Positions 1,400-46,683 of a stretch of 48,109 nt of DNA are shown here, piece by piece (the first letter of the stretch is position 1; every line of letters starts with the position of its first letter). The notes beneath the pieces are model-generated. The model was not told where the DNA came from. It saw only the letters and a program-made list of their open reading frames with translations, and ran no database searches. The DNA lies in assembly GCA_000182565.2 (NCBI GenBank), contig KQ257452.1, one strand, 5' to 3'. The DNA is from Spizellomyces punctatus DAOM BR117 (lineage: Eukaryota). A program made the position numbers and the translations under genes.

Positions 1400-1692
1400 T
1401 ATGCTTCCTCTGTGGGCATCCCTTTATAGATGTCCATGATACATATTTACCCGGAACATATCATTTTGTTGAGAAGGTTTGGATCTCGGCAGAATATACC
1501 TGCATATGCGTTCGAGATCGGCTGCACCAAAGCGACCTCTTTCCTGTAGACTTTCAATTATATGCATTTTCTACCAGAAAAGTGTGCAGTTTCCAGCGCA
1601 CAAGTCAAAACTACAGAGTCATTGTAATACTGCAGTGAATGCCCTGCAAAGAGTACCACTTGGAACAATTATTGCAACTGCAGGCTAAGCTA

Positions 1693-2491
1693 CTATGAAG
1701 TGGCATCCATTGTGCCTTGTCTGGGAATGCGGTACCGTCGTCGCGCTATGAAGTTCATGGAGATTAGTTTTATGATCGATACAGTGCAAGCTAAGAGGAA
1801 GGGCAGCATCCATACCATTAATGAACCAATCATTAAGCTGTTTTGCGTTTAATTCGGTCTCGTTGCATAACTCTTCTTTCTCGGCCTCACTTGGGTAAGG
1901 GTTAGCGCGATGCTGATAATACCACTGAAATAGTATTTGGGTTTTCCACGGAGGATGGTTGGGACGTTTCGGTCGACCGCTCTCGCTGACCGACCGCTGT
2001 TGACCAGACGATCCTTCCATTTGGCGTCCACGTGCTTCTGGTTCTTCCTGAGTTCCAAGTCCTTTGACGGGTAATCCCTCTGTATCATGAAATTCTGTGA
2101 GGGAGCTGCTTTCCACCGACTTGGAACGGCGCGAAAGAGGTGACGTGCGCTTTCGCTTCAGGTCAGAATTAACGAAAAAGGTGTCCATTTCGTCGCACAA
2201 ACGATCGAGCGTGCGCTCGAAATCATTATCATTTTGGGCTATCGAACGATACAACGCAATTTGTTGTCTAGATGCCACTGCAATTACAGACAAGATAAAG
2301 TGATCCAGGCTGTCGCGCGAGCGCCGCGAGCGGTCGATATGCCTCTTATTTGCTTTCAGGAGGTTAGTGACCAGGTCAAGACGTTCGGGAATGTCATCCG
2401 GCGTTAAGGAATTTATAGCAGTATCTCGCAATGTCAAAAGGCGGTCCGCTACAGGAAAGAGTGGATGCTCCTCTGCTTCGACGATCTCCAT
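1693..2491 (-). CDS. TALE-class homeodomain transcription factor
   Basis: WYYQHRANPYPSEAEKEEL...QLNDWFIN. Removing a GTATGG..TAG intron (1815-1746) restores WFINARRR and a stop at 1693-1695. The PYP insert marks TALE class. Likely ATG 2491 (MEIVEAEEH). Confidence 0.88.
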
Positions 2492-2766
2492 GAAGGGCAA
2501 TTTTTGGCAGAAAGTGAAGTTTGACAGGGACCGTAGGAAGTCCCAGCTACGTTTGGCGTGTGTGGTACCAGCACGTGCCCCGTGTGCCACATGTCCCTGT
2601 CGTGATTACATGATACGCATCTTCCTGCGCGCTCAGAGGATGTCCTAGATCAACCACTCCATTTTTTGAGGTACTGGAGACCGAGTCCTATCTCGCCACA
2701 GAGTGAACCCACAGTGCGGCGCATGCGTGCCTGCTGACCATCAGAAAGTCGTTCACAGTTACGGGC

Positions 2767-3675
2767 ATGAGTGAAACTCCGCTACAGTTTGCGTCCCCTC
2801 CGGCGTTAGCTTCGTTCGCTTCGGTTCCTGAACGTGCATCTTTTCCTGGATCGTACGTTTTGGTTCCGCAAGAATATCTTCCACTGATGGTAGAGCATTT
2901 TCCTTCCCCCTTCTTTAGCTGCGTAAAGGATGTCTACGCAGCTGGACCAGTTGTGCCTCAGACAATTTTGACGGAAACTCCTCTCAAGTCGTCAAAGAGT
3001 CAGATGGAAGCCTTTGCCTCTATAGTAGCGCCAGTTGATATTAGCCTTAACAGTATGACGAACCAAATTGATTCAGGTGGAGGTGGACCTGGTGACAATG
3101 CAAGCAACCATCCAAAACCGCAGCTTTCATTAGAGCTCGGGAACAGCTCAGGTGTCAACAGAACCAAGAGTAAACCTAGGGCCGGACCATCACACAAACC
3201 AGAGGCACTGAACAAGAGGTGGCGCACCCCCCGGCCACTGAACCCCTTCATCATATATCGGCGTGAAAAGCATACGTACATTCTGGCTAGAAATCACGGA
3301 ATACCAAATAACGAAATTTCCAAATTGGTAGGCCAGATGTGGGCCAACGAGCCGGAGTCGGTCAAATCCGTGTATCGTCAGCGCAGTGAAGAAGAGAAGC
3401 GAATACATCAATTGAAGCACCCTGGCTACAGATTTGCTCCAAGAAAACACAAACCGAAGCGGCCAAAGAAGTCAATTTCATGCCAAGAGTTTAAAGACCG
3501 ACCCGCTGGACATCAAAATTTAAGAGCAAGTCGTGCTCACTCAAATGAAGATAGCGTGGAAGAGAACACGAGCTCATTGTCGGCAGACTTCATCCATCCG
3601 ATACTGCCATCCCATCAATGTGTTTATGCTTACCACCCCTCTCAGCTGCAAGCTACAGTCCCTTTCGAGACGTAG
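2767..3675 (+). CDS. MATA/SOX-TCF-type HMG-box transcription factor
   Basis: TPRPLNPFIIYRREKH...IPNNEISKLVGQMWANEPESVKSVYRQRSEEEKRIHQLKHPGYRFAPRK: a single sequence-specific HMG box with basic tail. Intronless ORF. Confidence 0.92.
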   Translation: MSETPLQFASPPALASFASVPERASFPGSYVLVPQEYLPLMVEHFPSPFFSCVKDVYAAGPVVPQTILTETPLKSSKSQMEAFASIVAPVDISLNSMTNQIDSGGGGPGDNASNHPKPQLSLELGNSSGVNRTKSKPRAGPSHKPEALNKRWRTPRPLNPFIIYRREKHTYILARNHGIPNNEISKLVGQMWANEPESVKSVYRQRSEEEKRIHQLKHPGYRFAPRKHKPKRPKKSISCQEFKDRPAGHQNLRASRAHSNEDSVEENTSSLSADFIHPILPSHQCVYAYHPSQLQATVPFET

Positions 3676-21200: not shown

Positions 21201-21753
21201 TGTAACAGGCTAGCAGGGACAAGAAGACAACAGAAAACTAGGGAAGACTTGGTTACTCTTGTTATTTTCCTTTGAGGGGCCTCAGAGAGGTCCTCTTTTT
21301 ATAGACAAAGGGGCTGACAAATGCTATATCCTAACTACCCAATCAGATCTCACCCACATCATCCTAAACTATTTGTCAGCCTATTGCACCATTTGCAACC
21401 AATCAGAACTCATACNNNNNNNNNNNNNNNNNNNNNNNNNNNNNNNNNNNNNNNNNNNNNNNNNNNNNNNNNNNNNNNNNNNNNNNNNNNNNNNNNNNNN
21501 NNNNNNNNNNNNNNNGTGTCGCTGCACCGCAACTGATTTATTGGTGGCGGTACCGATCTCTTCCTTTTCCGCACTGGCTCGGGCCTCCACAGGTTGTACG
21601 AGGCACGCTGAAATCTAATGCGCCAATTGCCATTCTCCGAACCGGTTTTTTCGGTCGCGGTAACCCAATCGGTGGAGTTGGTCACGCGATTCGTGCTTCC
21701 CGCGTCCGATTTGGGCTTACTCGCGATCTCTCGAAGACGTCCTCGTCGTTACA
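21201..21753 (-). mobile_element. LTR-like sequence(s) spanning an N gap, TGTAAC...GTTACA termini
   Basis: tgtaac at 21201 and gttaca ending 21753. Minus-strand TATAAAAAG (about 21295-21303) and AATAAA (about 21537-21542). Flanks taggg and ataat do not form a TSD. Confidence 0.55.
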
Positions 21754-22153
21754 ATAATATGATATACCCGGCTTATAATATTCTATATAATAAGCCGTAT
21801 TGAAGTGTTTGCCCAATGCATTGGAGTGTTTCAAAGTGTTTCAAAGTGTTTCAAAGTGTTTCGAGTCTTCCAAGGTGTTTGTCCAAGTCCCGGACTATTG
21901 ATGAAGGGATGTGTGCATCTACGCCGAAAATTTTCTCTGACATACACGTAAAATTTTACGCATCTAATATTTCACGTGTCCAAACTTGACATTCGCTTCT
22001 TCTCAAGACTCCATGGTTCGTTTCCCCTTGGGCGGTTCGTTTCCCTTGGGCGGTTCGTTTGGTGATTTTACTCGAGCAAATTCTTGCTACTAGGTTCAAA
22101 CGCCACACTTTATGAAATCACTTTATCTTGCCACTAGGTTCAAATGCCACACT

Positions 22154-22552
22154 TTATGAAATCACTTTAGCTTGGGACTCCATCTCTCCACCTTCCTTTA
22201 CTGATGGTACTCGGGAGACCTTCAGTCTCAACACTTTTCGTTGTTTGTGGTAGATTGTGATAATCTCCATCACTTGGTCTTCTGTATATCCTGCCTCCAT
22301 TAGCCCCTGCTTGACGTCATCCACCAAAGCATTTAGCTTCTCCTCTACTAGTGATGCCACATACATATTTGAACCATCTTCGCCTATGATTGTCCTCACA
22401 TCCTTCTTAACCATTTTCCTTTCAATTGCCTCCTTTCTACGGCGATTCGTTGTTACGACTGCTTGGTGCATCTCATTGTCAACTGTGAGTTGGTAGAACC
22501 TCTTCATCTCATTTAGCTCTTCTTCACTTGCTCGCCTCATCATTTTCTCCAT
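22154..22552 (-). CDS. TIR-encoded 132-aa charged helical protein, copy 1
   Basis: Same as 45806-46204 except H/R at one codon; upstream TATCGATA x2 and TATAAAAG. Confidence 0.8.
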   Translation of the reverse strand: MEKMMRRASEEELNEMKRFYQLTVDNEMHQAVVTTNRRRKEAIERKMVKKDVRTIIGEDGSNMYVASLVEEKLNALVDDVKQGLMEAGYTEDQVMEIITIYHKQRKVLRLKVSRVPSVKEGGEMESQAKVIS

Positions 22553-22794
22553 TGTTAATTGCAGCTGTATTCGAATGTTGTATATGGAATCGTTTTTGAA
22601 AAGAAGGCTTCGAGCTGGGGAGGGGAGACCGGCGACCCTCTTTTATAAACGGAAAAGGAACCCTCCCATCTTATCGATATGATGGTTCAATACATGACCT
22701 CTCATCCTATCGATATAACATGTTCGATCTCTCATCGACAAAGTGGGATGCCATCTTTTGCTTACCTAAGCATTGTGACTCATGCAAATAAGTC

Positions 22795-22993
22795 GCAGTG
22801 AACCAGGTTTCCCTTGCTATCTGGGTAGCGAGGGTAAATGACCCCAATCTCAGTTTCCATGTATAACATACAAGTTGACTTCGGGGTCATTCACCCTCAA
22901 CCTACACCACCCAATAATCAACACAGGTAGCACGTGGTTATCTAGAGTACCTTTGGAGAGCCGAGCCACCTCACACCAGACATTGTTCACTGT
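22795..22993 (+). repeat. ~190-bp nested-palindrome repeat, copy 1
   Basis: GCAGTGAAC...GTTCACTG ends; inner gagggtaaatgacccc / ggggtcattcaccctc arms. Confidence 0.93.
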
Positions 22994-23048
22994 GTGAAAT
23001 TATTGTATAAATCATTCAAAGAGTCATATCAAGTATATACATCTTTTG

Positions 23049-23309
23049 TTATGAATCTATCTTCCGAGGTCTCCCCCTTAGTCTCTTTGGCGAACTTGTT
23101 CCTAATTTCTTGCGCGGTGCTTCCATTCTCGTTATCTGCAGAAACTTAGATGTATATTTGCATTCTTTTCCATCTAACATCCGGCGGATGGTGTGATAGC
23201 AAAGGTTCACCTTGGGTTGCAGTGCCGTTATCGTAGGGGCGGAATGTTCAACAAAGGAGCCATCCGGCTGAAGCAGTTTCACCGTGTAAATGTATTTCGA
23301 GGAAGGCAT
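23049..23309 (-). CDS. Small DNA-binding protein (HTH/NUMOD1-like core plus AT-hook)
   Basis: TITALQPKVNLCYHTIRRML helix pair; C-terminal RGRPRK AT-hook. Only the 3' half is duplicated in the right TIR. Confidence 0.6.
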   Translation of the reverse strand: MPSSKYIYTVKLLQPDGSFVEHSAPTITALQPKVNLCYHTIRRMLDGKECKYTSKFLQITRMEAPRKKLGTSSPKRLRGRPRKIDS

Positions 23310-26462: not shown

Positions 26463-26494
26463 ATGTAGTAAAGGTTATAAATACATTTTTTTGT

Positions 26495-26682
26495 GCAGTG
26501 AACCACTGCTATCTGGGTGGCGAGGGTAAATGACCCCGATCTCGGGTTCTATGTATAACATACAAGTTGACTTCGGGGTCATTTACCCTCACCCTACACA
26601 ACCCCATAATCAAGCAGGTAGCTTGTCGTTATCTAAGGAAGCTAGGAGAGAACCGCCAACCCACGCCAGACATTTTCACTGC
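26495..26682 (+). repeat. ~190-bp nested-palindrome repeat, copy 2
   Basis: Perfect 18-bp arms gagggtaaatgaccccga / tcggggtcatttaccctc around tatgtataacata. Confidence 0.93.
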
Positions 26683-27039: not shown

Positions 27040-29169
27040 ATGGACGCATTAACAACTCAGGAACAGCGTGTGAAGGCGACATGGTTCATCATCTGTCCAG
27101 ATGTGGACAATACATTCTTCGAAACGGCAAAAGCAATGCACCAAATCCTGACCGGAAAGTTGTATAAAGTACGTTACAAAACTTCAGATACATACCTGTA
27201 CGAACGCTGGAATATTGCAAGACGGACAGGATACAATTTTTCCACTGCGGGCAAAGTCATCATCGAGCTGGAGAAAACAGTATCTCAAGAGGACATGCCT
27301 ACAACACTTGGCACCATCTTGATGATAGAGAAGCTGTCAAAGGAAAACAGGCTACCATACGAGGAAGTCTGGCATAAAACCATCCAATTTTTCGGACGAC
27401 GACAAGATGTGGTGGCAGTCCAGATGCGCAACGCACTAGAAGAAAGCCAGCGCGGAGCATGTCAATTAGAAGAAGAGGAGTGCCAATCGGACGATCGTAT
27501 TGATTCAGCAGTTGTCATAGATTCAGCAATAGACCCTAGCGGTGATGCTTCTGTAGTAGAAGGAGGGGAGAATGGATGGAGTAGACGATTAAGAAAAAGA
27601 ACTAGAGACGCAATAACCGATTCCTCCTCGTCGGAATCCGAAGCAGATACAGCACCCGAAGAGCGCTTGCTAAAGCTGTCTTCGACTTACGAGCATGAAT
27701 ACCTAACTCCGCAGTGGTTATGGGAGAAGGTGTACCAATTAACAAATGGAATTGATCTCGATCCCTGTTGGCACGTAGAGTCAGTGGTGCGGGCAAAGAA
27801 AACATATGGGATGCAGCTAGATGGCTCCTTCATAAACGCTCTTCATTTAGAAAAATGGGACTCGGGCGAGTGGGTATGGTTGAACCCCCCAGGACATGCC
27901 CTTTTTCCTTCGCACCTCGGGCACCCAGACAACATAAATCTTCATGGACAGTTTTGGAATAAGGTGTTTCTTGAGATGTCGAAGGGACACATTGAGCGGA
28001 TCTGTGCCATCGTCCCTAATGTTGGATCTTCAACATGGCTAGCAACACTATTCAAAGAAGGCCTCATCTGCTTTCTTCACAAAAGAATAGATTGGGTGCT
28101 GTCATTAGCAGCTAAGGAGAGGAGGATGAAAAATCCGAAAACCGCCCGTGATCTCTTTCCTCGACTCATAGTTTACCTCGACAGCGACCCCACCTACCCA
28201 TACCAACAGAGATTCGCAGAGATCTTTAGTGATGTAGGATTCATTCCCGGCTATAATCTGAGGATGTGGAAACAACCGCAGCCGTTGAGGCACATCCGTT
28301 ATCTCAGTGTATGCTCTGGTATTGGTGTTGGCGAACTTGCTCTTCAACATGTCCTTCCCAGCGCGGAATGTGTAGGATATTTCGAAGTCGACAAAGACGC
28401 TTTAGCCGTGTATCAACATCACTTTCCTAATCATACGAACTTTGGGGATGTCACTAAAGCAGATGTTGGGAAATTGCCGGACTTTGACCTTCTTATAGGT
28501 GGCATCCCTTGTCAGCCGTTTTCGACAATGGTTTCTAATCATCACATCCGGAAGAACCATGATGATCCAAGGGCTGAACCTTTTAAACACTATGTTCATA
28601 TTCTCAAAGCGAAGAAGCCCCGTTGGTTTCTTATGGAGTGTGTGAGTTACATGGAAAAAGAAACGGAGCAACGGATTAGTCGAGAGATTGGAGTGTTGCC
28701 AGTAGCGATTGACAGCGGTAATTTTGCAGCACAATCAAGAAGACGGAATTATTGGGCAAACTGGTATATTCCCCAACCGATACGAAGTAAAGGTATTAAA
28801 CTGGAAGATATTGTTGAAAGATCTGTTCCACCGAATCCAGCAATCAAGAGGAAAGAATTGAAAGAATTCCACCCTCCGCTCGACACAGTCTCTTGTTTGA
28901 TACGCCCGATGGAAAACGGCAAAAAAACGGGGACAGTCTCGTTAAGAACCGATGGAAAATCAAACTGCTTGTTGACTACAGATTCTTATCAAAGCACATT
29001 AGTGATTAGTGGGGGTTTTCGGTTCTTGACGCACTTAGAACGTGAAAGGTTACAGGGGCTTCCGGATAATTATACGTCGATGGTTAGCTCTAACAAAGCA
29101 AGGCTGAGAATAGTTGGAAATAGTTTCAACTTGCCGACGATCGAGTACATTTTACAGCAGATGATGTGA
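27040..29169 (+). CDS. Fused DNA methyltransferase: phage Dam-type N6-adenine domain plus C5-cytosine domain
   Basis: YLTPQW..IDLDPC..W..WLNPPG (Dam-like; NPPY altered), then SVCSGIG, FEVD, GDV, GGIPCQPFS, MECV, QSRRR, ERLQGLP, GNS (C5 motifs I-X). Confidence 0.88.
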   Translation: MDALTTQEQRVKATWFIICPDVDNTFFETAKAMHQILTGKLYKVRYKTSDTYLYERWNIARRTGYNFSTAGKVIIELEKTVSQEDMPTTLGTILMIEKLSKENRLPYEEVWHKTIQFFGRRQDVVAVQMRNALEESQRGACQLEEEECQSDDRIDSAVVIDSAIDPSGDASVVEGGENGWSRRLRKRTRDAITDSSSSESEADTAPEERLLKLSSTYEHEYLTPQWLWEKVYQLTNGIDLDPCWHVESVVRAKKTYGMQLDGSFINALHLEKWDSGEWVWLNPPGHALFPSHLGHPDNINLHGQFWNKVFLEMSKGHIERICAIVPNVGSSTWLATLFKEGLICFLHKRIDWVLSLAAKERRMKNPKTARDLFPRLIVYLDSDPTYPYQQRFAEIFSDVGFIPGYNLRMWKQPQPLRHIRYLSVCSGIGVGELALQHVLPSAECVGYFEVDKDALAVYQHHFPNHTNFGDVTKADVGKLPDFDLLIGGIPCQPFSTMVSNHHIRKNHDDPRAEPFKHYVHILKAKKPRWFLMECVSYMEKETEQRISREIGVLPVAIDSGNFAAQSRRRNYWANWYIPQPIRSKGIKLEDIVERSVPPNPAIKRKELKEFHPPLDTVSCLIRPMENGKKTGTVSLRTDGKSNCLLTTDSYQSTLVISGGFRFLTHLERERLQGLPDNYTSMVSSNKARLRIVGNSFNLPTIEYILQQMM

Positions 29170-29263
29170 TAGATGGAGAAAATCTATCGATAAAACATGA
29201 AATAAAATGTCTATATAAGAGGTAAACCGGCTTCTATTCTTAGAATACAGATCAGCCCTGAAA

Positions 29264-30265
29264 ATGCAACAAGACCCCCAACCTATTGATGCCGAGTCGG
29301 CTCTATATGAAACGCTACATGCCATCCTTGACAGGATTCAGCAGTCACCCAACACCAAGAAACAGGATAAATCGCGTCTAAATCAACTCAAAGGCAACAA
29401 TCTTCTTTCCTTGTTCCAAACACCTGAGATACTCATTAGCAGGATCAAGGAAAAATGGACAAACGAGCATACATATTACAATTATATCAAATTGGTGTCA
29501 AAAATAGCACGCAATGCTACGAGGGCTGAAAAGGCAATGATCCTTCATCTAGCAGAGGATGCAATGGACGACCTTGATAGTCATTTTACAGACACATTCC
29601 ACTCTCACTTCAAGAATGTGACATTCGAAAGGTTCAAACAGTCAAAAAATGAAGCAGCATCCCAAGAGATGACCCAGGAAGATATCACCAATTATGTCCC
29701 TTACAGCGAACTCTTAGCAGGATTGAAAGTCGCTTTGACATTCATCAATGAGGGAAATATAGTGGAGCATCAATTTCTAATTGCTCTTGGGATGAACCTG
29801 GATGCAGATAAAATTCGTAGATGCGATATTTTCAAAGCGATGATTAGTGAAGACGCTAATGTTACGGTGAACAACGAAGGGAAAACTGTCTTCATCCGAA
29901 AATGCAATAAGACTGGTGAAAAGAATGTCCTCATTCAGATGGGAAACACCATTCAACCATACGTTAACATGTTAGCAAATGTCAGAAAGGGCAATGGACA
30001 GGATCGTCTTTTTCTAAAACCTGATGGAAGTATTCCAACCGATGCCTGGTATAGCGACGAATTTAGTAATGCTATGGAACGAATGTTTGGAAAGCGTGTA
30101 ACACAGAAACGCCTTCGAATTTCAGTGGGGATGCATCTTTCTGAAAGGGATAATGGAGATCACGCTTATCAGAAGGAAATCGAACGTAGGATGGGTCATA
30201 CCTATGCTGTTCATCAGCGCTATTACAATCTGTTCAAGTCATTTGTAGAACAGCCTAGGAATTAG
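29264..30265 (+). CDS. Tyrosine recombinase (PLV/NCLDV type)
   Basis: IRRCD (Arg I), NKT (Lys), KRLR (HxxR equivalent), RRMGHTYAVHQRYY (His and catalytic Tyr). Confidence 0.8.
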   Translation: MQQDPQPIDAESALYETLHAILDRIQQSPNTKKQDKSRLNQLKGNNLLSLFQTPEILISRIKEKWTNEHTYYNYIKLVSKIARNATRAEKAMILHLAEDAMDDLDSHFTDTFHSHFKNVTFERFKQSKNEAASQEMTQEDITNYVPYSELLAGLKVALTFINEGNIVEHQFLIALGMNLDADKIRRCDIFKAMISEDANVTVNNEGKTVFIRKCNKTGEKNVLIQMGNTIQPYVNMLANVRKGNGQDRLFLKPDGSIPTDAWYSDEFSNAMERMFGKRVTQKRLRISVGMHLSERDNGDHAYQKEIERRMGHTYAVHQRYYNLFKSFVEQPRN

Positions 30266-31494
30266 TGACTATTTTCATAATCGTTTACTGCATCTCTTGC
30301 ATTACGTATAAGTTCACTTCTCGGCTCCCAAGTTGACTGATCACGGTCATATCCTCTCCATAATACTTCATATTCTACTACTTGTCTTCCACCAACTCGA
30401 CGTGTTCTTTTATCTAACAATGCTTCAACTTCATACTCACCTTCTGGTACTTCCTCTTCATCGTCTTCAATCTCAGGTTCAACTTGCGGAGCCTCCCCAG
30501 CGGCATCCTCTTTAGGAATTAGACGCAATTGCCAAGCCGGATATAGACCTGGCAGTATGTGATTAGTATTGACAGATTTGATTTTATAAGAGTTCATGTA
30601 GTTAGGGTGAGGATTAGGAACAACGGCTGTTATCTCATACTTCTCTTCAGAAAAGTAACCCATTTTAGCACGCCTTTTTATATCCGTCCCTTGACCTGAT
30701 ATGTACTTTCTGACAACATCACCTACATTGAATGGAGGTAGTACCTTCACACCCTTTCCTTTAGTCCTAAGCGCACGTTGGGCTTGAGCCGCTCCTTGAA
30801 CATCTGCCTCCATCTCTTGTACCATCCGAAGTTTCTTACCACTGCCAAAACTTACTGTGGAATTAATGTTCTCTACAATCTGTGGCAACATACTCACCCA
30901 GTCTCTATTTCCTAAACGCATCCCCATGAATAGCGCTCGCTTTATCGTGCCATTCATCCTTTCTACCTGTCCATTGGTTTGAGGGCTTCCTGCTTTCGAA
31001 TAACGCCATTCAATACCGTGTTCCTCTGCATACTGTGGAGTGATGCCTTGGTTTTCATTTCCATTATCTGATTGAATACCATGAATCTCGACACCATCCT
31101 CGATGAGATCTTTTAGAAAATTGACAACACTCTGTTGTCTTGTATCTTTCAACGCTTTCGCATAAACACATTTAGTTNNNNNNNNNNNNNNNNNNNNNNN
31201 NNNNNNNNNNNNNNNNNNNNNNNNNNNNNNNNNNNNNNNNNNNNNNNNNNNNNNNNNNNNNNNNNNNNNNNNNNNNNNNNNNNNNNNNNNNNNNNNNNNN
31301 NNNNNNNNNNNNNNNNNNNNCCTTCACCATGCTAACAAGGTCCTTTGGGAAATCTCGCTCTCTGGGTACTTTGCTTTGTAAAGCGCGTACAAACGATCTC
31401 TGCCCATGTAAGCATGCTCTCTATAGTAGAGCTGCTTTAAACGCTGCTCATCTTCTCGTGTTATATCTTTCCAGTTAGGCTTCCTTTCCTCCAT
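30262..31494 (-). CDS. Retroviral-type (rve, DDE) integrase with C-terminal chromodomain, interrupted by N gap
   Basis: IQSDNGNE, SPQTNGQVERMNGTIK, FNVGDVVR; chromodomain YEVEALLD..YEVLWRGY..STWEP; N-terminal LYY..MGRDRLY beyond gap 31178-31320. Likely ATG 31494. Confidence 0.9.
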
Positions 31495-31595
31495 CTTATC
31501 GATAAGATCAGCTTTAAAAACATGCCGGTAAAGCACGCTCCACGTGCGTTAACAGTGCTCTTCAAGCACCCGGTACGGAGTGCCAATGCCAGCAA

Positions 31596-33088: not shown

Positions 33089-33670
33089 ATGGAAGAGCAA
33101 AATCAAAATCATCAAGAATCGAGTGCCGTTCCACAAGATAATGTAGAACCACCCGCTGAACAAGCACCTGTTCAAAAAGCAGAAATTATACCAGAACAGC
33201 CTCCAAAGCAAAAGGTGAAACGCCCGATGACGGACAAGCAACGGGCTGCATTGGAGAAGGCGCAGAAAGCGAGGGCTGAACAATTGCGCCTAATGCAAGC
33301 AAAACGCGAGAAGGAACGGAAGGAGCAGGATAAACAAAGGAGGATCGATGAGGCCAAACGCATCCTTGAAGAGGAGAAGGAACAGAAGCGGTTGGCGAGG
33401 GAAGAACGACGAAACACAAAGCGAGGAAAGAAGGCAACACCAACTAGGAGCAAGAGATCCAAACCAGCAGCAAAGGCGCAGCCAGCAGCAATACGTCCAT
33501 CTAAAAAAAAGAGCGTAATTTTGAAATTCGGTGATGATGAACCATTCTTTGACTCTAGACCATTNNNNNNNNNNNNNNNNNNNNNNNNNNNNNNNNNNNN
33601 NNNNNNNNNNNNNNNNNNNNNNNNNNNNNNNNNNNNNNNNNNNNNNNNNNNNNNNNNNNNNNNNTGTTGA
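33089..33670 (+). CDS. Basic coiled-coil protein (possible core/DNA-condensing protein); 3' end in N gap
   Basis: KRPMTDKQRAALEKAQKAR; K/R/E-rich. Confidence 0.6.
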   Translation: MEEQNQNHQESSAVPQDNVEPPAEQAPVQKAEIIPEQPPKQKVKRPMTDKQRAALEKAQKARAEQLRLMQAKREKERKEQDKQRRIDEAKRILEEEKEQKRLAREERRNTKRGKKATPTRSKRSKPAAKAQPAAIRPSKKKSVILKFGDDEPFFDSRPXXXXXXXXXXXXXXXXXXXXXXXXXXXXXXXXXXC

Positions 33671-35034: not shown

Positions 35035-35226
35035 GCAGTGAACATTGTCCGCCGTTTTCGCTCTTTCTCTTTCAAGCTTCCCTTAGACAGCCACACGCTA
35101 CCTGTTTGATTATGGGGTTGGATGTAGGTTGAGGGTAAATGACCCCGAAGTCCAGTAACATGTTATACATAGAACCCGAGATCGGGGACAATCACCCTCG
35201 CCACCCAAATAGCAGTAGTTCACTGG
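35035..35226 (-). repeat. ~190-bp nested-palindrome repeat, copy 3 (most diverged)
   Basis: Same arms and core in reverse orientation, between MCP and the 99-aa ORF. Confidence 0.9.
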
Positions 35227-35232
35227 ATTAGA

Positions 35233-37064: not shown

Positions 37065-37161
37065 GGTTTTTTCGCCCCATCTTTATCGATAAGATGGGCA
37101 CCGTCGAGCGCTTCGTCTTTTGCCAAGCTCCTCAAATTTTACTTCCTAGCTACAATATAAC

Positions 37162-40100
37162 ATGTCTGGAATTAATAGTAGACATTCTACGGGGTTACGT
37201 ACCGTAGATAACACAAATCTCTTATCTCCATATGTGACAGGCGAAATGGTTGGCTTCGATGTTGGAGCCAAGATAAAGGGGTTCGATGTTGGAGAATTTA
37301 AGCATTTATCTAATGAAAATGGTAAACTTAAAGTCAACGAGGTTGAAACCACCTCTGAATGCTTACCTTGTACGAATGAACATGGCGTCGTATCCATTGG
37401 ATTAAATGTTGATAACAAGAGGCTTGAAATTGATGAGGAGAGTCGGTTGACCACAATCGACGTATCTGCGCATCAACCTCTTGTCTACTCAAAAGAGGGT
37501 CATGATATCCAACTTCAGTTTGATGATTCATCTTTATCTGTAGAAGAAGAAAAACTGAAAGTGATTCCCGAAAATTATGAGTTCCCAATGTACCGTGATG
37601 ATGAATCGCGGACGGTTGGTATTCGAGTGGATGAGACATTATCCATTAACGAAAACGGACTTTCAGTGAACTTTCCACCACCGCCACCTCTAGAAACACT
37701 GAAGAAACCTCTATATCGGGATAATGGAATCGGTGTCAAACTTCACAAGAGTTTGAAGGTGAATAGTTCAGATGAACTCGAAACAAACTCAAGCCAACTG
37801 TTCAAAGCATTTGGGGCTATAAAGACATCCAGCGGTGCTGATACGCTGTTAGACATCGGGTCTTCATGGCTCGACTTTGGATTCGATAGTTTGACCGAAA
37901 TGACTAATGTGTTAGGAGAGGTAGACACCACAGCCATTCGCCTAATGGTAGATAGTTCCATATTCAGCCAAGCGGGTTCGAGATTGTCCCTGAAATCACC
38001 CGGATATGAACAAATCATGTATGGGAACCTTACTTATGGCTACTCGGGAAGTTCTTCATTCACCTATTCGTCCACGCTTCAGGAGTTGCGTGTACCCAAT
38101 GTAAAGTTAAGCGGAACATTGCCTGCGATTGGAGGTGGCTCGTATGCTGTAAGTAAAGACTATCTTTCGCAATTTTATCAAGGCTCTCAAACTGGAGCGA
38201 TCGCCGTGAGTCCGGAGGCTGCTGGACGTCGAGAGATAGGCTGTTTGGTCGATAATCAGACCATCAGAATTGTTGGAAATGCACTCACAGGTGGGTACAT
38301 TTTTCAGGACTTTAATGGCGTATCTATTCGACCTGGAACGACCAATGATGTGGTATTATCTCTTAAATGCGAGGCTGGCAGTTGTCTCCAAATGGTCAAA
38401 GCAGATACCATTAAAGACGTACTGACTTGCAGCAATGGTATCGAGAGAGTACAGAATGACCTTCAACTCGATCTAAAAGTTGATGCTAATTCAGGTTTGG
38501 CTATGGTCAACAGGGGAACCATACGGGATACCTTCACAGCCTCCCAAGGGGTAACCAGGACGGGGAACGACTTCAGACTGAGTTTAACAGCACAGTCACC
38601 CGATCTTACTCTAAACAATGGTGTTCTGAGTTCAAACATCGCTGCGGGAATTGGACTGCAAAAAAATGGTGCGATTTTGTCAACAAACCTAAGAGGTATC
38701 AATGGAGTGCAAGTTAGCGGCGATTTGATTTCATGTTCGATTTCAGGAAGCGATACTATTCTTCGCGTAGGCGATGCCTTAAGAGGTAATTATGTGGGCA
38801 GTACCAACTCATATGGAAGTATTATTGTTGTTGGAAATACGATTCAGTATAACATGATTCCTCCTCAATTCGTAAGTAACAGTCCAAATCTCATCATTAC
38901 AGGTTCGTATCCGCTTTATAACTTTACCCTCATTGACCCTACGCCATTATCGAAGCAAAGGGATACCGATAATACTGAACAGAGTGATACCGCAGAAGTG
39001 TTAAAAACGGATGTTCCATCAGGCAACACTGTTATTTTGTCCGGAGCAACTCCATTATCAACCGTACCTTTTCCAGCGATGGTCTCCCCGCCCTTGACAG
39101 TCCCTATGGCTGTAAACTCCATCCTCCCAATCGTCTCAACGTTCCCTTGGGGAATGATTTTCGGAGGGTCATGCAAACGTAAGGTTCAACGAGATGCGGA
39201 AGGACAACCTATACTCGATGGCGATGGAAACCCCATTTACGAACCAATAGACCCTGTTACCTTCATGCCACCACTTGAACCCGGGAGCAATGTCGCAATT
39301 GCTTCTGATCCAATAGGAGGTTGTACTCGTCTCTTGTTTGATATGCCTTCATGTTATCGAGGCATCAAATACGAATACCCTCAGCAAGCAATCAATCTCT
39401 CAATGTTAAGAGATTACGACAATGATGTTATCAAACCTTGGGTCGGAAGCCAGATAACTAATCTAACTTCAAATAATGTTACATTTGGCGGCAATATCTC
39501 AGGGAAAGTCATTACAGGAAGCAGAGTTCAAACGACCGCCTCTGTAGCAGGAGGCTCGTCTGTCTTTATTTCAAATAGTTTTGACAGTACAAAATCGTCT
39601 TGGCTGGGTCTGGATGGTTCTGGTCTTTTAGGGTATGCTAGTGATGCTGCTACGTGGTTAGGAGCACAAGACAAGCCGATTTACATTTACAGACGGACAT
39701 CTAGTGCAGTATCTCTGGGTCTAAGAGTGGACACAAATGGTTCATGCGTTGTAGGGGGTGACCTAACTGTCGGAGCCTCTTCTGTAAACGGTTTACGTTC
39801 CCTTATCGTAAGCAATCCGAGTACAGGGACGAACGGATGCAGCATTCTTTATCTAACGGCTTCAGGGGGTTCTGGAGTGATGTTTTTGAATGGAAACAAC
39901 CGGAGTTCGGACGGTGGGATTAACGCAATGACGTTGAGAAACGATATTGGTAACCTTCGGCTTCAAGCACAGACCGCTAGAGGACTAACAATACAGGCAA
40001 ACACTGGAATCGTTACGCTGGATGCTACAAATGATGCATCCTCTACAACAACAGGTGCATTACAAATTCCCGGTGGATTAGGAGTGCAAGGCACAGTGTA

Positions 40101-43100
40101 CATGGGAAAGTATGCTATTATATCTACTACAGCCGCTGCCGCCTTTCAAATAAACAACGCATCATTCGGATATACAGCAACAGCAGGTCAATGGGTAACA
40201 AATACCATTGCTGGAGACTACATCATTCGAGCCTCCGCTAGTAATTTGCGTATTGGTACAAATAATGCAACGGCTTCGAATTTGGATATTCTCTCATCTG
40301 GGAATGTTATTATCAATACGACAACTGATGCTACTTCCTCAACATCTGGCTCGTTCCAGGTGAAAGGTGGAGTTAGCATCGCTAAATCACTGTACGTTGG
40401 AGGGGATGTATACACAAATGGAGTGAAATTGGCTACTGAAAGTTCTCTAACAACATCCATTGCTACGAAGCAAAATGCCAGTCCTTTACTCGATGCAATC
40501 AGTGGTTTAACAACGACACCGAATTCCTTCGTCATGGGAACTGCTGGGGGCTTTACAGTATCACCTGTCTCTACAATTCTAGGGGGATTCCAACCTCTTC
40601 TTACTACATCGTCTGCATTGAATGTTAATTCTCTAACAACGAGTGGTGGAATATTTGTCCAAGGCACCTCAGATATAGTGTTTCGAGTAGATAATGTAGG
40701 CAATGGACTCTTGACAGGTGGCTTACTTGTTGAACATGATCTAAATGTTGAAGGACTGATCATTCAAAATGGAGTCGAAGTGGCTACGCAACAATGGAGT
40801 GTCGCTACAATGACCGGCATGACAAGTCCTCTTAGTCAATCCTTGACTTCGCTTCAAACACTTGTTCAGAATAACAAGGCCGCCGCAGATACAGCACTTG
40901 CTACTAAACAAAGTGCGTCTGCGTTACTCGATTCTATCAGCGGTTTAACGCCGGCGGCTAACACTTTCATCATGGGAACACCCACAGGGTTCTCAGTTGT
41001 TCCTACATCGAATATACTTTCCTCATATCAACCTCTTATTACCTCATCGACTGCGCTATCATTTAACAGTGCCACTGTTGGCGGGGGTATAACCATTCAA
41101 AATGGCGCAGCATCTACAACATTGTCCTTAGTAAATACTGGGAGTAATGTTACATGGGGCATGAGAGTTGCCGGAAGCACAGGAGACGGAACATTATCAG
41201 CAGGCGGATTCGGTCTAAATAGTTCTTATAACAATACAGGCTTTGTTCTGAGAGTTTCCAATACAGGCGTAACGCAGATACCAAACACAACCGATTCAAC
41301 TAGTGTGACAACAGGTGCTTTCCAGGTATCAGGTGGAGTCAGCATAGGAAAAACTCTAACCCTAGGAGCAGGTGGAGGAGGATTGCAGCCGGCTGCCATA
41401 GTCATCAATGCGCCTTCAAGTGCCACAGCGTCTACCGCCGTTCTGATTAGTAACAATGCTGCTTCGAGTAATTCTTGGGGTATATACCACGCTGCAACTA
41501 ATGGAACAGGTATACTTACCAATGGGAGCCTCGGGTTTTATAACTATGGAACTAGCGCCCATCAATTCATTCTCAAAGCCAATGGAACCATTGCCATCAC
41601 TTCGACTACAGACTCATCGTCGACTATAATGGGCGCATTGCAGGTATCAGGAGGTTTAGGTGTCGCTAAAATGCTGTACGTTGGTGGAGACATTTTCTCC
41701 AATAATCTCAAACTTGCAACCGAGAGTTATGTAGGGACAGCCATTGCTAATAAACAGGCATCAAGTCCACTATTATCGTCTATAAGCGGTCTTGCATTAT
41801 CAGCGAATTCATTTATTGTTGGGAGTTCTGCTACATCATTCTCGGTGAAAACTCCTGAAGAGGTGAAGACAATATTAGGCATTACCAATGTCGACATCTC
41901 AGGGAAGCAAAATGCAAGTCCTTTACTCGATTCCCTTGCATCGATGAGTCCAATGTCGAACATGTTTGTCATGGGAGATGATGTCCAAGGATTTACCCTT
42001 GTGAATGATATTTCCGTTCGAAGTATTTTAAACATTGTCGACTATGCCCCCAGCATATCAGCACTGCAAACATCGAAACAAGATGTTATAACATCTTCTA
42101 GTAATCTGTTGGCAAATACAATTCTTGCTAACGATACATCCGAGGCAACAACCGTATCAAGTGGCGCTCTACAGGTTAAAGGAGGAATAGGGGTTTCTAA
42201 AAGTATCTTCTCAGGTGGAAACATTACAGGAAAAGTTCTCATAGCCGCCTCTACAGGTGGATATTTCAAGTTGAGAAGTGACACTCCCTCTACGAAAGGT
42301 GACTACACTATCTCCTACAACAACTCCGGAGACGCCCTTCACGTCCACCTCGCCGGCTCGTCTGATAGCGTAGACCAACGTCGTTATGAATTCGGTCATT
42401 ATTCCAGTGATACCTTTGGAACATGGAATAGCCGATTCTCGGTTAACACCTACACCGGAGACCTCATCTCGTCCGGTAATCTAACTATCGGTTCGCCACT
42501 TAACGGGCTACGGGCTATTATTCTTAAAAACCTCGACTCTGGGAGCAATAGTTGTGCCATCCAATACTTCCAGAATGCAGCAGGTTCTGCTGTTATGTTT
42601 TTGAACGGAAACAACCGGAGTTCGGATGGAGGCGTTAACACAATGACATTGAGAAACGATATTGGAAATCTTCGGCTCCAAGCACAGACCGCTAAAGGAC
42701 TAACGATACAGGCAAATACCGGAAATGTCACAATTGATTCTACAACACCAGCATTGAGTTCTTCCACAGGAGCATTGGTCGTTTCAGGAGGTGTCGCGGT
42801 TGCTGCACATGTTGTTGCAGGAGGGAATCTGTATTCGAACGGTGCTGTCTATAGCAATGGTCAGGTTTGTGCTACTCAACCATGGGTTGCCAGTCAAACA
42901 TTTCTAAGAAATGTTCAAGTTATCAAACTTTTGACTAAAGACGTGTGGCAATCCAACAATGCCTCGAAGGTCTTCTATGTTTCAACACCTGGCAAGGTAC
43001 TTATGGAGTGGACGCTTAACCTCCATGGCACAGCAAACTCAAATGGTACATTGTCAATATTTCTCGGACAAAGCGCTGGGTCGATGCCTCTCGTGTACTC

Positions 43101-43269
43101 GAGCGACTTTAACTTTAATTCGGGAGTCAATCGTACAATCACAGCAGCCTTTGTTGTTACAGGGATGTCCGATAACATTGCTTACTTCACAAATTTTAGT
43201 ATCAGTCAGGCTGCTCCCGATAACACAACTGATGTTACCCTCATTAAAATCACTGAACTCGGACAATAG
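37162..43269 (+). CDS. Very long fibre/spike-like virion protein (2035 aa)
   Basis: Shaft-like beta repeats near the N-terminus; repeated STTTGALQVxGGxGV; KQxASPLLxxISGL x4; duplicated MFLNGNNRSSDGG..LRNDIGNLRLQAQTA block. Confidence 0.75.
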   Translation: MSGINSRHSTGLRTVDNTNLLSPYVTGEMVGFDVGAKIKGFDVGEFKHLSNENGKLKVNEVETTSECLPCTNEHGVVSIGLNVDNKRLEIDEESRLTTIDVSAHQPLVYSKEGHDIQLQFDDSSLSVEEEKLKVIPENYEFPMYRDDESRTVGIRVDETLSINENGLSVNFPPPPPLETLKKPLYRDNGIGVKLHKSLKVNSSDELETNSSQLFKAFGAIKTSSGADTLLDIGSSWLDFGFDSLTEMTNVLGEVDTTAIRLMVDSSIFSQAGSRLSLKSPGYEQIMYGNLTYGYSGSSSFTYSSTLQELRVPNVKLSGTLPAIGGGSYAVSKDYLSQFYQGSQTGAIAVSPEAAGRREIGCLVDNQTIRIVGNALTGGYIFQDFNGVSIRPGTTNDVVLSLKCEAGSCLQMVKADTIKDVLTCSNGIERVQNDLQLDLKVDANSGLAMVNRGTIRDTFTASQGVTRTGNDFRLSLTAQSPDLTLNNGVLSSNIAAGIGLQKNGAILSTNLRGINGVQVSGDLISCSISGSDTILRVGDALRGNYVGSTNSYGSIIVVGNTIQYNMIPPQFVSNSPNLIITGSYPLYNFTLIDPTPLSKQRDTDNTEQSDTAEVLKTDVPSGNTVILSGATPLSTVPFPAMVSPPLTVPMAVNSILPIVSTFPWGMIFGGSCKRKVQRDAEGQPILDGDGNPIYEPIDPVTFMPPLEPGSNVAIASDPIGGCTRLLFDMPSCYRGIKYEYPQQAINLSMLRDYDNDVIKPWVGSQITNLTSNNVTFGGNISGKVITGSRVQTTASVAGGSSVFISNSFDSTKSSWLGLDGSGLLGYASDAATWLGAQDKPIYIYRRTSSAVSLGLRVDTNGSCVVGGDLTVGASSVNGLRSLIVSNPSTGTNGCSILYLTASGGSGVMFLNGNNRSSDGGINAMTLRNDIGNLRLQAQTARGLTIQANTGIVTLDATNDASSTTTGALQIPGGLGVQGTVYMGKYAIISTTAAAAFQINNASFGYTATAGQWVTNTIAGDYIIRASASNLRIGTNNATASNLDILSSGNVIINTTTDATSSTSGSFQVKGGVSIAKSLYVGGDVYTNGVKLATESSLTTSIATKQNASPLLDAISGLTTTPNSFVMGTAGGFTVSPVSTILGGFQPLLTTSSALNVNSLTTSGGIFVQGTSDIVFRVDNVGNGLLTGGLLVEHDLNVEGLIIQNGVEVATQQWSVATMTGMTSPLSQSLTSLQTLVQNNKAAADTALATKQSASALLDSISGLTPAANTFIMGTPTGFSVVPTSNILSSYQPLITSSTALSFNSATVGGGITIQNGAASTTLSLVNTGSNVTWGMRVAGSTGDGTLSAGGFGLNSSYNNTGFVLRVSNTGVTQIPNTTDSTSVTTGAFQVSGGVSIGKTLTLGAGGGGLQPAAIVINAPSSATASTAVLISNNAASSNSWGIYHAATNGTGILTNGSLGFYNYGTSAHQFILKANGTIAITSTTDSSSTIMGALQVSGGLGVAKMLYVGGDIFSNNLKLATESYVGTAIANKQASSPLLSSISGLALSANSFIVGSSATSFSVKTPEEVKTILGITNVDISGKQNASPLLDSLASMSPMSNMFVMGDDVQGFTLVNDISVRSILNIVDYAPSISALQTSKQDVITSSSNLLANTILANDTSEATTVSSGALQVKGGIGVSKSIFSGGNITGKVLIAASTGGYFKLRSDTPSTKGDYTISYNNSGDALHVHLAGSSDSVDQRRYEFGHYSSDTFGTWNSRFSVNTYTGDLISSGNLTIGSPLNGLRAIILKNLDSGSNSCAIQYFQNAAGSAVMFLNGNNRSSDGGVNTMTLRNDIGNLRLQAQTAKGLTIQANTGNVTIDSTTPALSSSTGALVVSGGVAVAAHVVAGGNLYSNGAVYSNGQVCATQPWVASQTFLRNVQVIKLLTKDVWQSNNASKVFYVSTPGKVLMEWTLNLHGTANSNGTLSIFLGQSAGSMPLVYSSDFNFNSGVNRTITAAFVVTGMSDNIAYFTNFSISQAAPDNTTDVTLIKITELGQ

Positions 43270-44406: not shown

Positions 44407-44573
44407 GCAGTGAACAATGTCTGGTGTGAGGTGGCTCGGCTCTCCAAAGGTACTCTAGATAACCACGTGCTACCTGTGTTGATTATTGGGTGGTGTAGGT
44501 TGAGGGTGAATGACCCCGAAGTGCATTAACATGTTATACATGAAAACTGAGATTGGGGTCATTTACCCTCGCT
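44407..44573 (-). repeat. ~190-bp repeat, copy 4 (one end missing)
   Basis: Nearly identical to copy 5 apart from a short patch beside the core. Confidence 0.9.
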
Positions 44574-44609
44574 CATTCAAGATCACCAGGTAGCCACATT
44601 CTACTTTTC

Positions 44610-45011: not shown

Positions 45012-45364
45012 ACTGTTTTGTGGTGTAAGTGTGTGGATTTGCTAGCGAGCTTGCCTCTTTTATATTCACAACTCATCCATCGATGGAACCTTCAGTATGA
45101 TGCCATGTAGATGAGGATGCACGCAGACACGTCGTTGTTCTACATAACCATGATGTACCTATCACACCATCCGCCGGATGTTAGATGGAAAAGAATGCAA
45201 ATATACATCTAAGTTTCTGCAGATAACGAGAATGGAAGCACCGCGCAAGAAATTAGGAACAAGTTCGCCAAAGAGACTAAGGGGGAGACCTCGGAAGATA
45301 GATTCATAACAAAAGATGTATATACTTGATATGACTCTTTGAATGATTTATACAATAATTTCAC

Positions 45365-45563
45365 GCAGTGAACAATGTCTGGTGTGAGGGGGTTCGGCTC
45401 TCCAAAGATACTCTAGATAACCACGTGCTACCTGTGTTGATTATTGGGTGGTGTAGGTTGAGGGTGAATGACCCCGAAGTCAACTTGTATGTTATACATG
45501 GAAACTGAGATTGGGGTCATTTACCCTCGCTACCCAGATAGCAAGGGAAACCTGGTTCACTGC
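45365..45563 (-). repeat. ~190-bp repeat, copy 5 (TIR mirror of copy 1)
   Basis: CGCAGTGAAC...GTTCACTGCG termini. Confidence 0.93.
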
Positions 45564-45805
45564 GACTTATTTGCATGAGTTACAATGCTTAGGTAAGCAA
45601 AAGATGGCATCCCACTTTGTCGATGAGAGATCGAACATGTTATATCGATAGGATGAGAGGTCATGTATTGAACCATCATATCGATAAGATGGGAGGGTTC
45701 CTTTTCCGTTTATAAAAGAGGGTCGCCGGTCTCCCCTCCCCAGCTCGAAGCCTTCTTTTCAAAAATGATTCCATATACAACATTCGAATACAGCTGCAAT
45801 TAACA

Positions 45806-46204
45806 ATGGAGAAAATGATGAGGCGAGCAAGTGAAGAAGAGCTAAATGAGATGAAGAGGTTCTACCAACTCACAGTTGACAATGAGATGCACCAAGCAGT
45901 CGTAACAACAAATCGCCGTAGAAAGGAGGCAATTGAAAGGAAAATGGTTAAGAAGGATGTGAGGACAATCATAGGCGAAGATGGTTCAAATATGTATGTG
46001 GCATCACTAGTAGAGGAGAAGCTAAATGCTTTGGTGGATGACGTCAAGCAGGGGCTAATGGAGGCAGGATATACAGAAGACCAAGTGATGGAGATTATCA
46101 CAATCTACCGCAAACAACGAAAAGTGTTGAGACTGAAGGTCTCCCGAGTACCATCAGTAAAGGAAGGTGGAGAGATGGAGTCCCAAGCTAAAGTGATTTC
46201 ATAA
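45806..46204 (+). CDS. TIR-encoded 132-aa protein, copy 2
   Basis: Mirror of 22154-22552. Confidence 0.8.
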   Translation: MEKMMRRASEEELNEMKRFYQLTVDNEMHQAVVTTNRRRKEAIERKMVKKDVRTIIGEDGSNMYVASLVEEKLNALVDDVKQGLMEAGYTEDQVMEIITIYRKQRKVLRLKVSRVPSVKEGGEMESQAKVIS

Positions 46205-46633
46205 AGTGTGGCATTTGAACCTAGTGGCAAGATAAAGTGATTTCATAAAGTGTGGCGTTTGAACCTAGTAGCAAGAATTTGCTCGAGTAAAATCACCAAA
46301 CGAACCGCCCAAGGGAAACGAACCGCCCAAGGGGAAACGAACCATGGAGTCTTGAGAAGAAGCGAATGTCAAGTTTGGACACGTGAAATATTAGATGCGT
46401 AAAATTTTACGTGTATGTCAGAGAAAATTTTCGGCGTAGATGCGCACATCCCTTCATCAATAGTCCCGGACTTGGACAAACACCTTGGAAGACTCGAAAC
46501 ACTTTGAAACACTTTGAAACACTTTGAAACACTCCAATGCATTGGGCAAACACTTCAATACGGCTTATTATATAGAATATTATAAGCCGGGTATATCATA
46601 TTATACACTGGGTATATCATATTATAAGCCGGC

Positions 46634-46683
46634 TGATACAGTGCATCAGATAAGCCATTCGGCTTATCTGATGCACTGTATCA
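46634..46683. other. Terminal hairpin: perfect 23-bp stem, 4-nt loop, TG...CA ends
   Basis: tgatacagtgcatcagataagcc ATTC ggcttatctgatgcactgtatca. Confidence 0.92.

Follow-up and report, generated by a model that had tools for sequence, protein, structure and literature searches.

The stretch of DNA analysed here (the window) comprises 48,109 nucleotides (nt) of contig KQ257452.1 from the chytrid fungus Spizellomyces punctatus DAOM BR117 (assembly GCA_000182565.2), and it holds a Polinton-like virus (PLV; Preplasmiviricota) that is integrated in the fungal genome. Within this element two convergent genes for unrelated integration enzymes, a tyrosine recombinase (YR) on the + strand and an rve-type integrase with a chromodomain on the - strand, meet tail to tail. 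The YR open reading frame (ORF; 29264..30265) encodes 333 amino acids (aa) and ends in a TAG stop codon at 30263-30265, and the rve/chromodomain ORF (30262-31494) terminates with TAA on the complement of 30262-30264. The 4 bp common to the two genes, at 30262-30265, had been described in an initial annotation of the sequence and the coordinates agreed with ours. The overlap of the two convergent stops is a single genome-compaction event and carries no statistical weight.

The element was 24.85 kb in length with a GC content below that of its flanks, and was bounded by terminal inverted repeats (TIRs) of 1,446 nt that showed 10 mismatches between the arms. Its genes encode a 982-aa helicase, a C5 methyltransferase, the YR, the rve integrase, an A32-type ATPase and a 2035-aa fibre-like protein; from their place, two further ORFs without Pfam support may encode the putative penton and major capsid protein (MCP). 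Both the YR and the rve genes lay between the TIRs, with the helicase and C5 methyltransferase genes on one side of the pair and the capsid module (A32 ATPase, putative penton and MCP) on the other. A Pfam scan of 10 element ORFs detected no pPolB, and the scan of element ORFs likewise gave no maturation or cysteine protease, the latter being weak evidence of absence.

Both recombinase genes are native to one virus and neither looks nested. No direct or inverted repeats were found flanking either the YR or the rve gene, and the GC content of the two genes was 0.41 and 0.42, compared with 0.41-0.47 for the other element genes and 0.48-0.52 for host genes. The rve gene starts at an ATG of its own, and its neighbours are the YR gene, across the 4-bp overlap, and the A32 ATPase gene at a distance of ~100 nt; no reverse transcriptase (RT), RNase H or long terminal repeat (LTR) was seen beside it. 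A palindromic octamer, TATCGATA, was present in eight copies in the window against 0.63 expected, all eight of them inside the element and upstream of genes (22672, 22708, 29185, 31497, 37084, 44315, 45643 and 45679), and an extended form, TTATCGATAAGATGG, was common to the integrase gene and the gene for the 2035-aa protein (the copy at 37084). We regard TATCGATA as a candidate viral promoter or initiator motif. The initial annotation had raised the possibility that one of the enzymes belongs to a nested, separate transposable element; what we found on checking was a lack of flanking repeats, a GC content like that of the element and TATCGATA upstream of both genes.

From its sequence the + strand ORF appears to follow the tyrosine recombinase pattern, with R, K, R and H followed by Y nine residues later in the expected order. 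We take the catalytic residues expected of a YR, together with their spacing, to be those of XerD and Cre, and five of the six were kept. A word-based search gave two relatives, a Powellomyces hirtus protein (36% identical) and SPPG_08458 of S. punctatus DAOM BR117, which was 99% identical and differed at 4/333 residues. As the window YR itself was missing from the protein collection, these four differences point to a second copy of the element or to another strain or assembly. In a profile search of 1.84 billion representatives, 51 relatives were found at E<=1e-3, of which 35 reached E<=1e-10 and 13 reached E<=1e-30. The family alignment (n=30) contained the window protein and 29 of the 51; the other 22 were left out as a duplicate (99%), a fusion of 690 aa, fragments or partial matches. 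R186, K216, L249 and R285 were invariant across the 30 sequences, and D188, L237, R241, H312 and Y321 were conserved in at least 90%. The N-terminal 360 aa of the fusion (P0010) matched neither a Pfam family nor anything in the window, and so gave no hint of a fusion partner. A scan of bacterial and archaeal contigs with the YR pattern matched 27 stretches, none of which was confirmed.

The family is poorly captured by standard profiles. The window YR matched no Pfam family even at E<=10 and did not reach the gathering score of Phage_integrase (PF00589); across the alignment, this family was touched by 2/30 members (at best 2.3e-5, 24.7 bits against a cut-off of 27.1), Phage_int_SAM_5 by 1/30 and the PHROG integrase families by 4/30. 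An AlphaFold (AF2) model made with the alignment had a pLDDT of 93.7 and a pTM of 0.84 and consisted of the two standard YR domains only. The PDB matches listed by Foldseek were all of the following kinds: XerA, XerH, XerD, Cre/Tre, the lambda and Tn1549 integrases, a Staphylococcus aureus integrase, phi3T SroF and TelA, with a probability of 1.00 and a query TM-score (TMq) of up to 0.56 (Cre). Against BFVD there were 11 matches at E<=1e-3, headed by proteins of Tetraselmis virus 1, Pyramimonas orientalis virus and Aureococcus anophagefferens virus (the third-best; E 1.9e-6, TMq 0.65) and followed by a Heterosigma akashiwo virus protein labelled 'Tyr recombinase domain'. The nearest Atlas clusters (best 4 of 30, score 0.98) were all viral, with Preplasmiviricota the commonest phylum, and the YR family spans PLVs, virophages and algal giant viruses. 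Fold and conserved residues (R186, K216, R285, H312, Y321) thus bear out the initial assignment: on the predicted structure, the + strand ORF is an intact tyrosine recombinase with the two-domain fold of Cre, Xer and lambda Int and an R-K-R-H-Y active site.

The - strand gene was recognised by Pfam above the cut-off for both Chromo (PF00385; 4.8e-13, 49.2 bits against 25.1) and rve_3 (PF13683; 5.7e-7, 29.6 bits against 26.5). The rve family itself (PF00665) remained below threshold, at 17.1 against 32.6 bits, because profile positions 1-37 fall under a run of 143 N; positions 38-102 aligned to residues 5-65 of the visible part of the protein. Residues 34-109 aligned with residues 185-261 of the prototype foamy virus (PFV) integrase (PDB 3dlr, 7.7e-5), placing D37 and E72 opposite what we take to be D185 and E221 in PFV numbering. 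Of the DD35E triad, the second Asp and the Glu are therefore kept, and the position of the first Asp lies under the N run. The chromodomain matched CDY (6e-8) and HP1 (5.7e-7) in the PDB and has Tyr, Trp and Tyr at what are presumably the positions of the HP1 aromatic cage. For this gene product, the nearest Atlas clusters were short rve+Chromo proteins (Mucoromycota, Nematoda, Preplasmiviricota), and Preplasmiviricota was the commonest phylum of one of them. In the word-based search, the rve part matched one chromodomain-only protein. An AF2 model of the visible 304 aa, made without an alignment, was unusable (pLDDT 43). Judged on these alignments, the gene is most simply a Maverick/Polinton-type integrase with an rve DDE core and a chromodomain.

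This copy of the integrase gene is interrupted by an in-frame TGA at codon 57. The sequence on either side of the N run is in the same reading frame, and the frame is open over the other 353 codons, 48 of which are under N. As profile positions 38-102 are visible, the 48 hidden codons must encode positions 1-37, including the first Asp, and this leaves no space for an intron. By this argument the TGA would be a genuine premature stop in this copy, or else a sequencing error, and the integrase may be broken here and may have been functional until recently. Of the initial description of 30262-31494, the domain assignment stood, with Chromo and rve_3 above their cut-offs; the single clean ORF did not, given the TGA and the 143 N.

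The TIR termini of the element read ATAATATG...CATATTAT and are not the TG..CA ends that had initially been proposed. The terminal 16-mer recurs once, 5 nt past the right end, where it makes 21-nt tandem units with the end of the TIR. Further out on this side lies a perfect palindrome with a fold energy of -46.8 kcal/mol (z -12), the central 4 nt of which are not self-complementary. Beyond the left TIR there was nothing comparable to the palindrome or to the extra 16-mer. The integration junction is atypical. The left flank is gene-rich, with genes for ribosomal P0, GH5, HMG-box and homeobox proteins, and these neighbours are unlike heterochromatin, so the insertion into heterochromatin put forward in the initial annotation was not confirmed. 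In this host flank, at 1685-3675, the homeobox (KN-type) and HMG-box genes are adjacent and divergent; adjacent homeobox and HMG-box genes in fungi are reminiscent of mating-type regions.

The coordinates of the features are collected in Table 1. We note several other features of the element. The C5 methyltransferase gene, directly upstream of the YR gene on the same strand, encodes a 709-aa protein (27040-29169), whose C-terminal half carries the C5 cytosine methyltransferase domain (PF00145, 1e-33) and whose N-terminal half received no assignment. The 2035-aa ORF (37162-43269) contains internal repeats of ~200 nt (39863-40061 and 42578-42776, 80% identical) and weakly matched the N-terminus of the adenovirus fibre (2.1e-5); it may encode a viral fibre or spike protein. 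A repeat of ~130 nt with a strongly hairpin-forming core occurs in five copies, all intergenic (22800-22930, 26490-26645, 35075-35230, 44470-44600 and 45428-45558), and the three copies tested gave RNA fold z values of -7.7, -2.5 and -5.0. The left pair of copies runs in the opposite orientation to the three on the right, and the inverted pair 26496-26638 / 35081-35225 encloses an 8.4-kb core with both recombinase genes. The repeats may serve as hairpins at transcript 3' ends or as sites of recombination. Runs of N were present in the window at 21416-21515 (100 nt), 31178-31320 (143 nt) and 33565-33664 (100 nt); under the last of these falls the end of a Lys/Glu-rich ORF of 193 aa that lies shortly upstream of the putative MCP gene.

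Table 1. Coordinates of the two recombinase genes, their landmarks and the element ends (window numbering)
Feature	Position	Strand	Length or remark	Evidence
Left terminal inverted repeat	21754..23199		1446 nt	
TATCGATA motif	29185..29192		72 nt upstream of YR start codon	
Tyrosine recombinase gene	29264..30265	+	333 aa, single exon, intact	family conservation, structure model
R186 codon	29819..29821	+	first catalytic Arg	invariant in 30/30 sequences
K216 codon	29909..29911	+	beta-hairpin Lys	invariant; model hairpin E208-213/E220-225
R285 codon	30116..30118	+	second catalytic Arg	family alignment; invariant
H312 to Y321	30197..30226	+	His-III and nucleophile Tyr, 9 residues apart	each at least 90% conserved
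Overlap of the convergent ORFs	30262..30265		4 bp, stop codons included: TAG (+), TAA (-)	
rve-type integrase gene with C-terminal chromodomain	30262..31494	-	interrupted in this copy	Pfam, PDB, frame analysis
Chromodomain	30271..30435	-	residues 248-302 of the 304-aa visible part	PF00385, CDY, HP1
Visible C-terminal half of rve core	30850..31164	-		PFV integrase and rve profile alignments
E72 codon	30963-30961	-	Glu of the triad, 35 residues between D37 and E72	
D37 codon	31068-31066	-	second Asp of the triad	
N run within integrase gene	31178..31320		143 nt, over the expected first catalytic Asp	
In-frame TGA	31324..31326	-	integrase codon 57	frame analysis
N-terminal 56 codons of integrase	31327..31494	-	from ATG 31494; no Pfam family	
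TATCGATA motif	31497..31504		directly against the integrase ATG	
Right terminal inverted repeat	45159..46604		1446 nt	
Perfect palindrome	46634..46683		23-bp arms, 4-nt centre; 30 nt outside right TIR	unique in window

We propose, by analogy with the endogenous mavirus-like elements (EMALEs) of Cafeteria, that the element is one virus with two integration routes, one through rve and one through YR, a reading that we hold at about even confidence. The analysis above shows the identities of the genes, the intactness of the YR and the residence of both in one element; beyond this we infer a division of tasks in which the rve integrase, as in the published reading of dual-integrase EMALEs, would insert the linear, TIR-ended genome into host chromosomes, with its chromodomain tethering it to methylated histone tails. 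The YR would act separately, in a site-specific DNA reaction on a replicon that is circular or of another form; this could be integration or excision at a co-infecting giant virus or at a specific att site, or the resolution of replication multimers. For the mid-GC EMALEs, the available text of Hackl et al. (2021; PMC8547959) states that all encode a YR besides a CHROMO-bearing rve-INT, that they have a long primase/helicase and no pPolB, that both integrase genes are kept across three element types, and that the YRs are suggested to integrate into giant virus genomes.

Several observations weigh against this proposal. On the YR side, the family does not keep the His of the HxxR box (the position is K282 here and variable elsewhere), and searches of PDB sequences, both with the single protein and with the 30-sequence profile, found no recombinase. 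What these searches did return (Syd, a Rieske protein, designed helical repeats and LARP1) was rejected. As Pfam and PDB sequence searches gave no recombinase, the YR was recognised by structure and family conservation only, and in the structural comparison with the PDB the best E was 1.3e-3, with no match at E<=1e-3. The YR gene is also central, ~7.5 kb and 16 kb from the element ends, and lies away from any putative att site, unlike the YR genes of many YR elements. On the rve side, the TGA at codon 57 and the concealment of the first Asp under N leave two working enzymes unproven for this copy, and a word-based search with the rve core gave no close relative and nothing at E<=1. No direct repeat of 4-12 nt, as expected of a target-site duplication (TSD), abuts the TIRs of this copy, and searches with offsets of up to 40 and 99 nt gave distant chance matches only; rve-mediated insertion of this copy is therefore unproven.

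Some of these observations would fit another explanation, namely module turnover, in which a helicase and YR replaced an ancestral pPolB and rve, so that the rve gene is a decaying leftover and only the YR works, with no division of labour. This is possible, and we consider it the less probable of the two accounts. It draws on the contrast between the stop in the rve gene and the intact YR, on the ends without a TSD, and on the 982-aa helicase as the replicative gene where Pfam detected no pPolB in the 10 ORFs. It also agrees with the model of end-module turnover in the available part of PMC11296320, which predicts loss of pPolB and rve after gain of a helicase and YR, and with the correlation of DDE integrases with PolB, and of YRs with other replicases (PolA and AEP), that is described in the accessible text of a preprint (10.64898/2026.10.13.758929). 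Yet the rve frame is otherwise open over 353 codons (48 under N), with D37, E72 and a full chromodomain kept, and the gene retains the upstream motif of the element. Between the TIRs there are only 10/1446 differences, so that a lone nonsense change may be the recent decay of one endogenous copy instead of a sign that selection on the family has relaxed, and the retention of both genes across three types of mid-GC EMALE, as given in the text of PMC8547959 available to us, argues against turnover. Another possibility is that the YR acts on repeats of the element while the rve-chromodomain enzyme carries out chromosomal insertion, with antisense interference between the two genes, as a lifestyle switch. 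As sites for the YR, the terminal repeats of 21 nt and the ~130-nt hairpin repeats (five copies) are candidates, and the outcome could be a Flp/FRT-like inversion, circularization, amplification or a move into a chytrid giant virus. Taken jointly, this set of suggestions is unlikely. If it were true, the convergent overlap of the two genes would make expression of one enzyme interfere with the other through antisense transcription.

The initial annotation had itself offered a different account, in which the YR was a protelomerase-like enzyme or a resolvase of the palindrome and rve acted through TG..CA ends into heterochromatin. TelA is indeed among the structural matches of the YR (rank 16 and below, E 3e-2), a perfect palindrome with 23-bp arms does lie beside the right end and the chromodomain is intact, but the details do not favour this account, which we consider very unlikely. 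TelA matched the model with a TMq of 0.38-0.40, compared with 0.50-0.56 for Cre, Tn1549 Int and lambda Int, and at 333 aa the protein has the two standard domains only; the model thus predicts an ordinary strand-exchange recombinase and not a protelomerase. Counting against the palindrome as a YR substrate are its single copy on the right side, its place outside the TIR and its non-palindromic centre, and both the ATAATATG...CATATTAT ends and the gene-rich insertion site depart from what had been proposed for rve. A nested transposon could also have supplied one of the enzymes, the YR coming from a Crypton or the rve and chromodomain from part of an LTR retrotransposon of the chromovirus type. 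Chromodomain integrases are typical of fungal Ty3/gypsy chromoviruses, and the Cryptons are YR transposons of fungi. In the cryptophyte PLVs, moreover, the available text of PMC12220804 places rve co-occurring with YR always in a nested retrotransposon. Against this, the rve gene is wedged with its own ATG between the YR and ATPase genes, with no RT, RNase H or LTR; neither gene has flanking repeats, both share the GC content and the TATCGATA motif of the element, and the best 4 of 30 YR Atlas clusters are viral, most commonly Preplasmiviricota. Nesting is thus highly improbable.

PLVs and virophages usually rely on one integration enzyme, the type of which correlates with replication mode and insertion site, and an element that has both lends itself to two readings, a stable dual-route integrator or a transition state of module exchange. 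The YR family, with at least 51 representative clusters, escapes Pfam. S. punctatus is amenable to genetic work. For zoosporic fungi, giant viruses are by now on record (PMC13533422, in its available part), and fungi were left out of a large survey of endogenous viral elements in protists (PMC10120064). The published S. punctatus PLV (Bellas & Sommaruga 2021; PMC7805220) is, according to the accessible text, at another locus, SPPG_00918 to SPPG_00930, and has a pPolB; in our literature search SPPG_08457 to SPPG_08460 were named in no paper found.

Pairing of rve and YR is rare in PLVs. In the available text of PMC12220804 the two occur together in 11 PLVs and 1 virophage of 8300, in agreement with the statement of the initial annotation that PLVs generally carry one type of integrase; each such rve is fused to a reverse transcriptase and, in the cryptophyte PLVs, is part of a nested retrotransposon. 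Among the systems with which the two enzymes can be compared singly, the protelomerases (TelK, TelA, ResT) share the catalytic fold of the YR superfamily and a palindrome near one genome end; they differ in that their structural match is weaker than that of Cre and Int, that the window YR lacks the extra protelomerase domains, and that the palindrome of the window is neither at both ends nor within the TIR. The Cryptons of fungi resemble the window gene, by description only, in being eukaryotic, fungal YR genes without RT, whereas the window YR lacks boundaries of its own, lies within a virus that encodes a capsid and has viral clusters as its nearest. Unlike the integrase of chromovirus LTR retrotransposons, the window rve is not in a pol gene with RT and RNase H and has no flanking direct repeats. 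The Maverick/Polinton c-integrase is closer, as a standalone, RT-less DDE integrase with a C-terminal chromodomain in a TIR-bounded virus-like element, although the window element has no detected pPolB partner and no 5- to 7-bp TSD, and its gene is interrupted by a stop with the first Asp under N. For the YR, the available text of Yutin et al. (2015; PMC4642659) describes OLV11-like YRs in PLVs, Organic Lake-type virophages and Aureococcus anophagefferens virus. These resemble the window YR as small YRs poorly recognised by standard profiles, a likeness of description and not to the OLV11 sequence, but in those PLVs the YR is the sole integrase.

The closest parallel for the pair is provided by the mid-GC EMALEs (types 5-7) of Cafeteria burkhardae, likened here by gene content and not by sequence kinship. 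As given in the available text of PMC8547959, these combine a CHROMO-rve integrase and a predicted YR in one element, lack pPolB, have a long helicase-type replication gene, encode a DNA methylase in one type and are integrated in the genome of a protist-grade host. The window element differs in its host, a chytrid fungus, in having no maturation protease detected by Pfam and in the tail-to-tail overlap, which is not reported in that text. The pairing has so far been described for the Cafeteria EMALEs and thus has a published precedent, and the chytrid case extends it to Fungi: as in the dual-integrase elements defined there, the window element combines rve-INT and YR with TIRs and capsid genes, pPolB being undetected.

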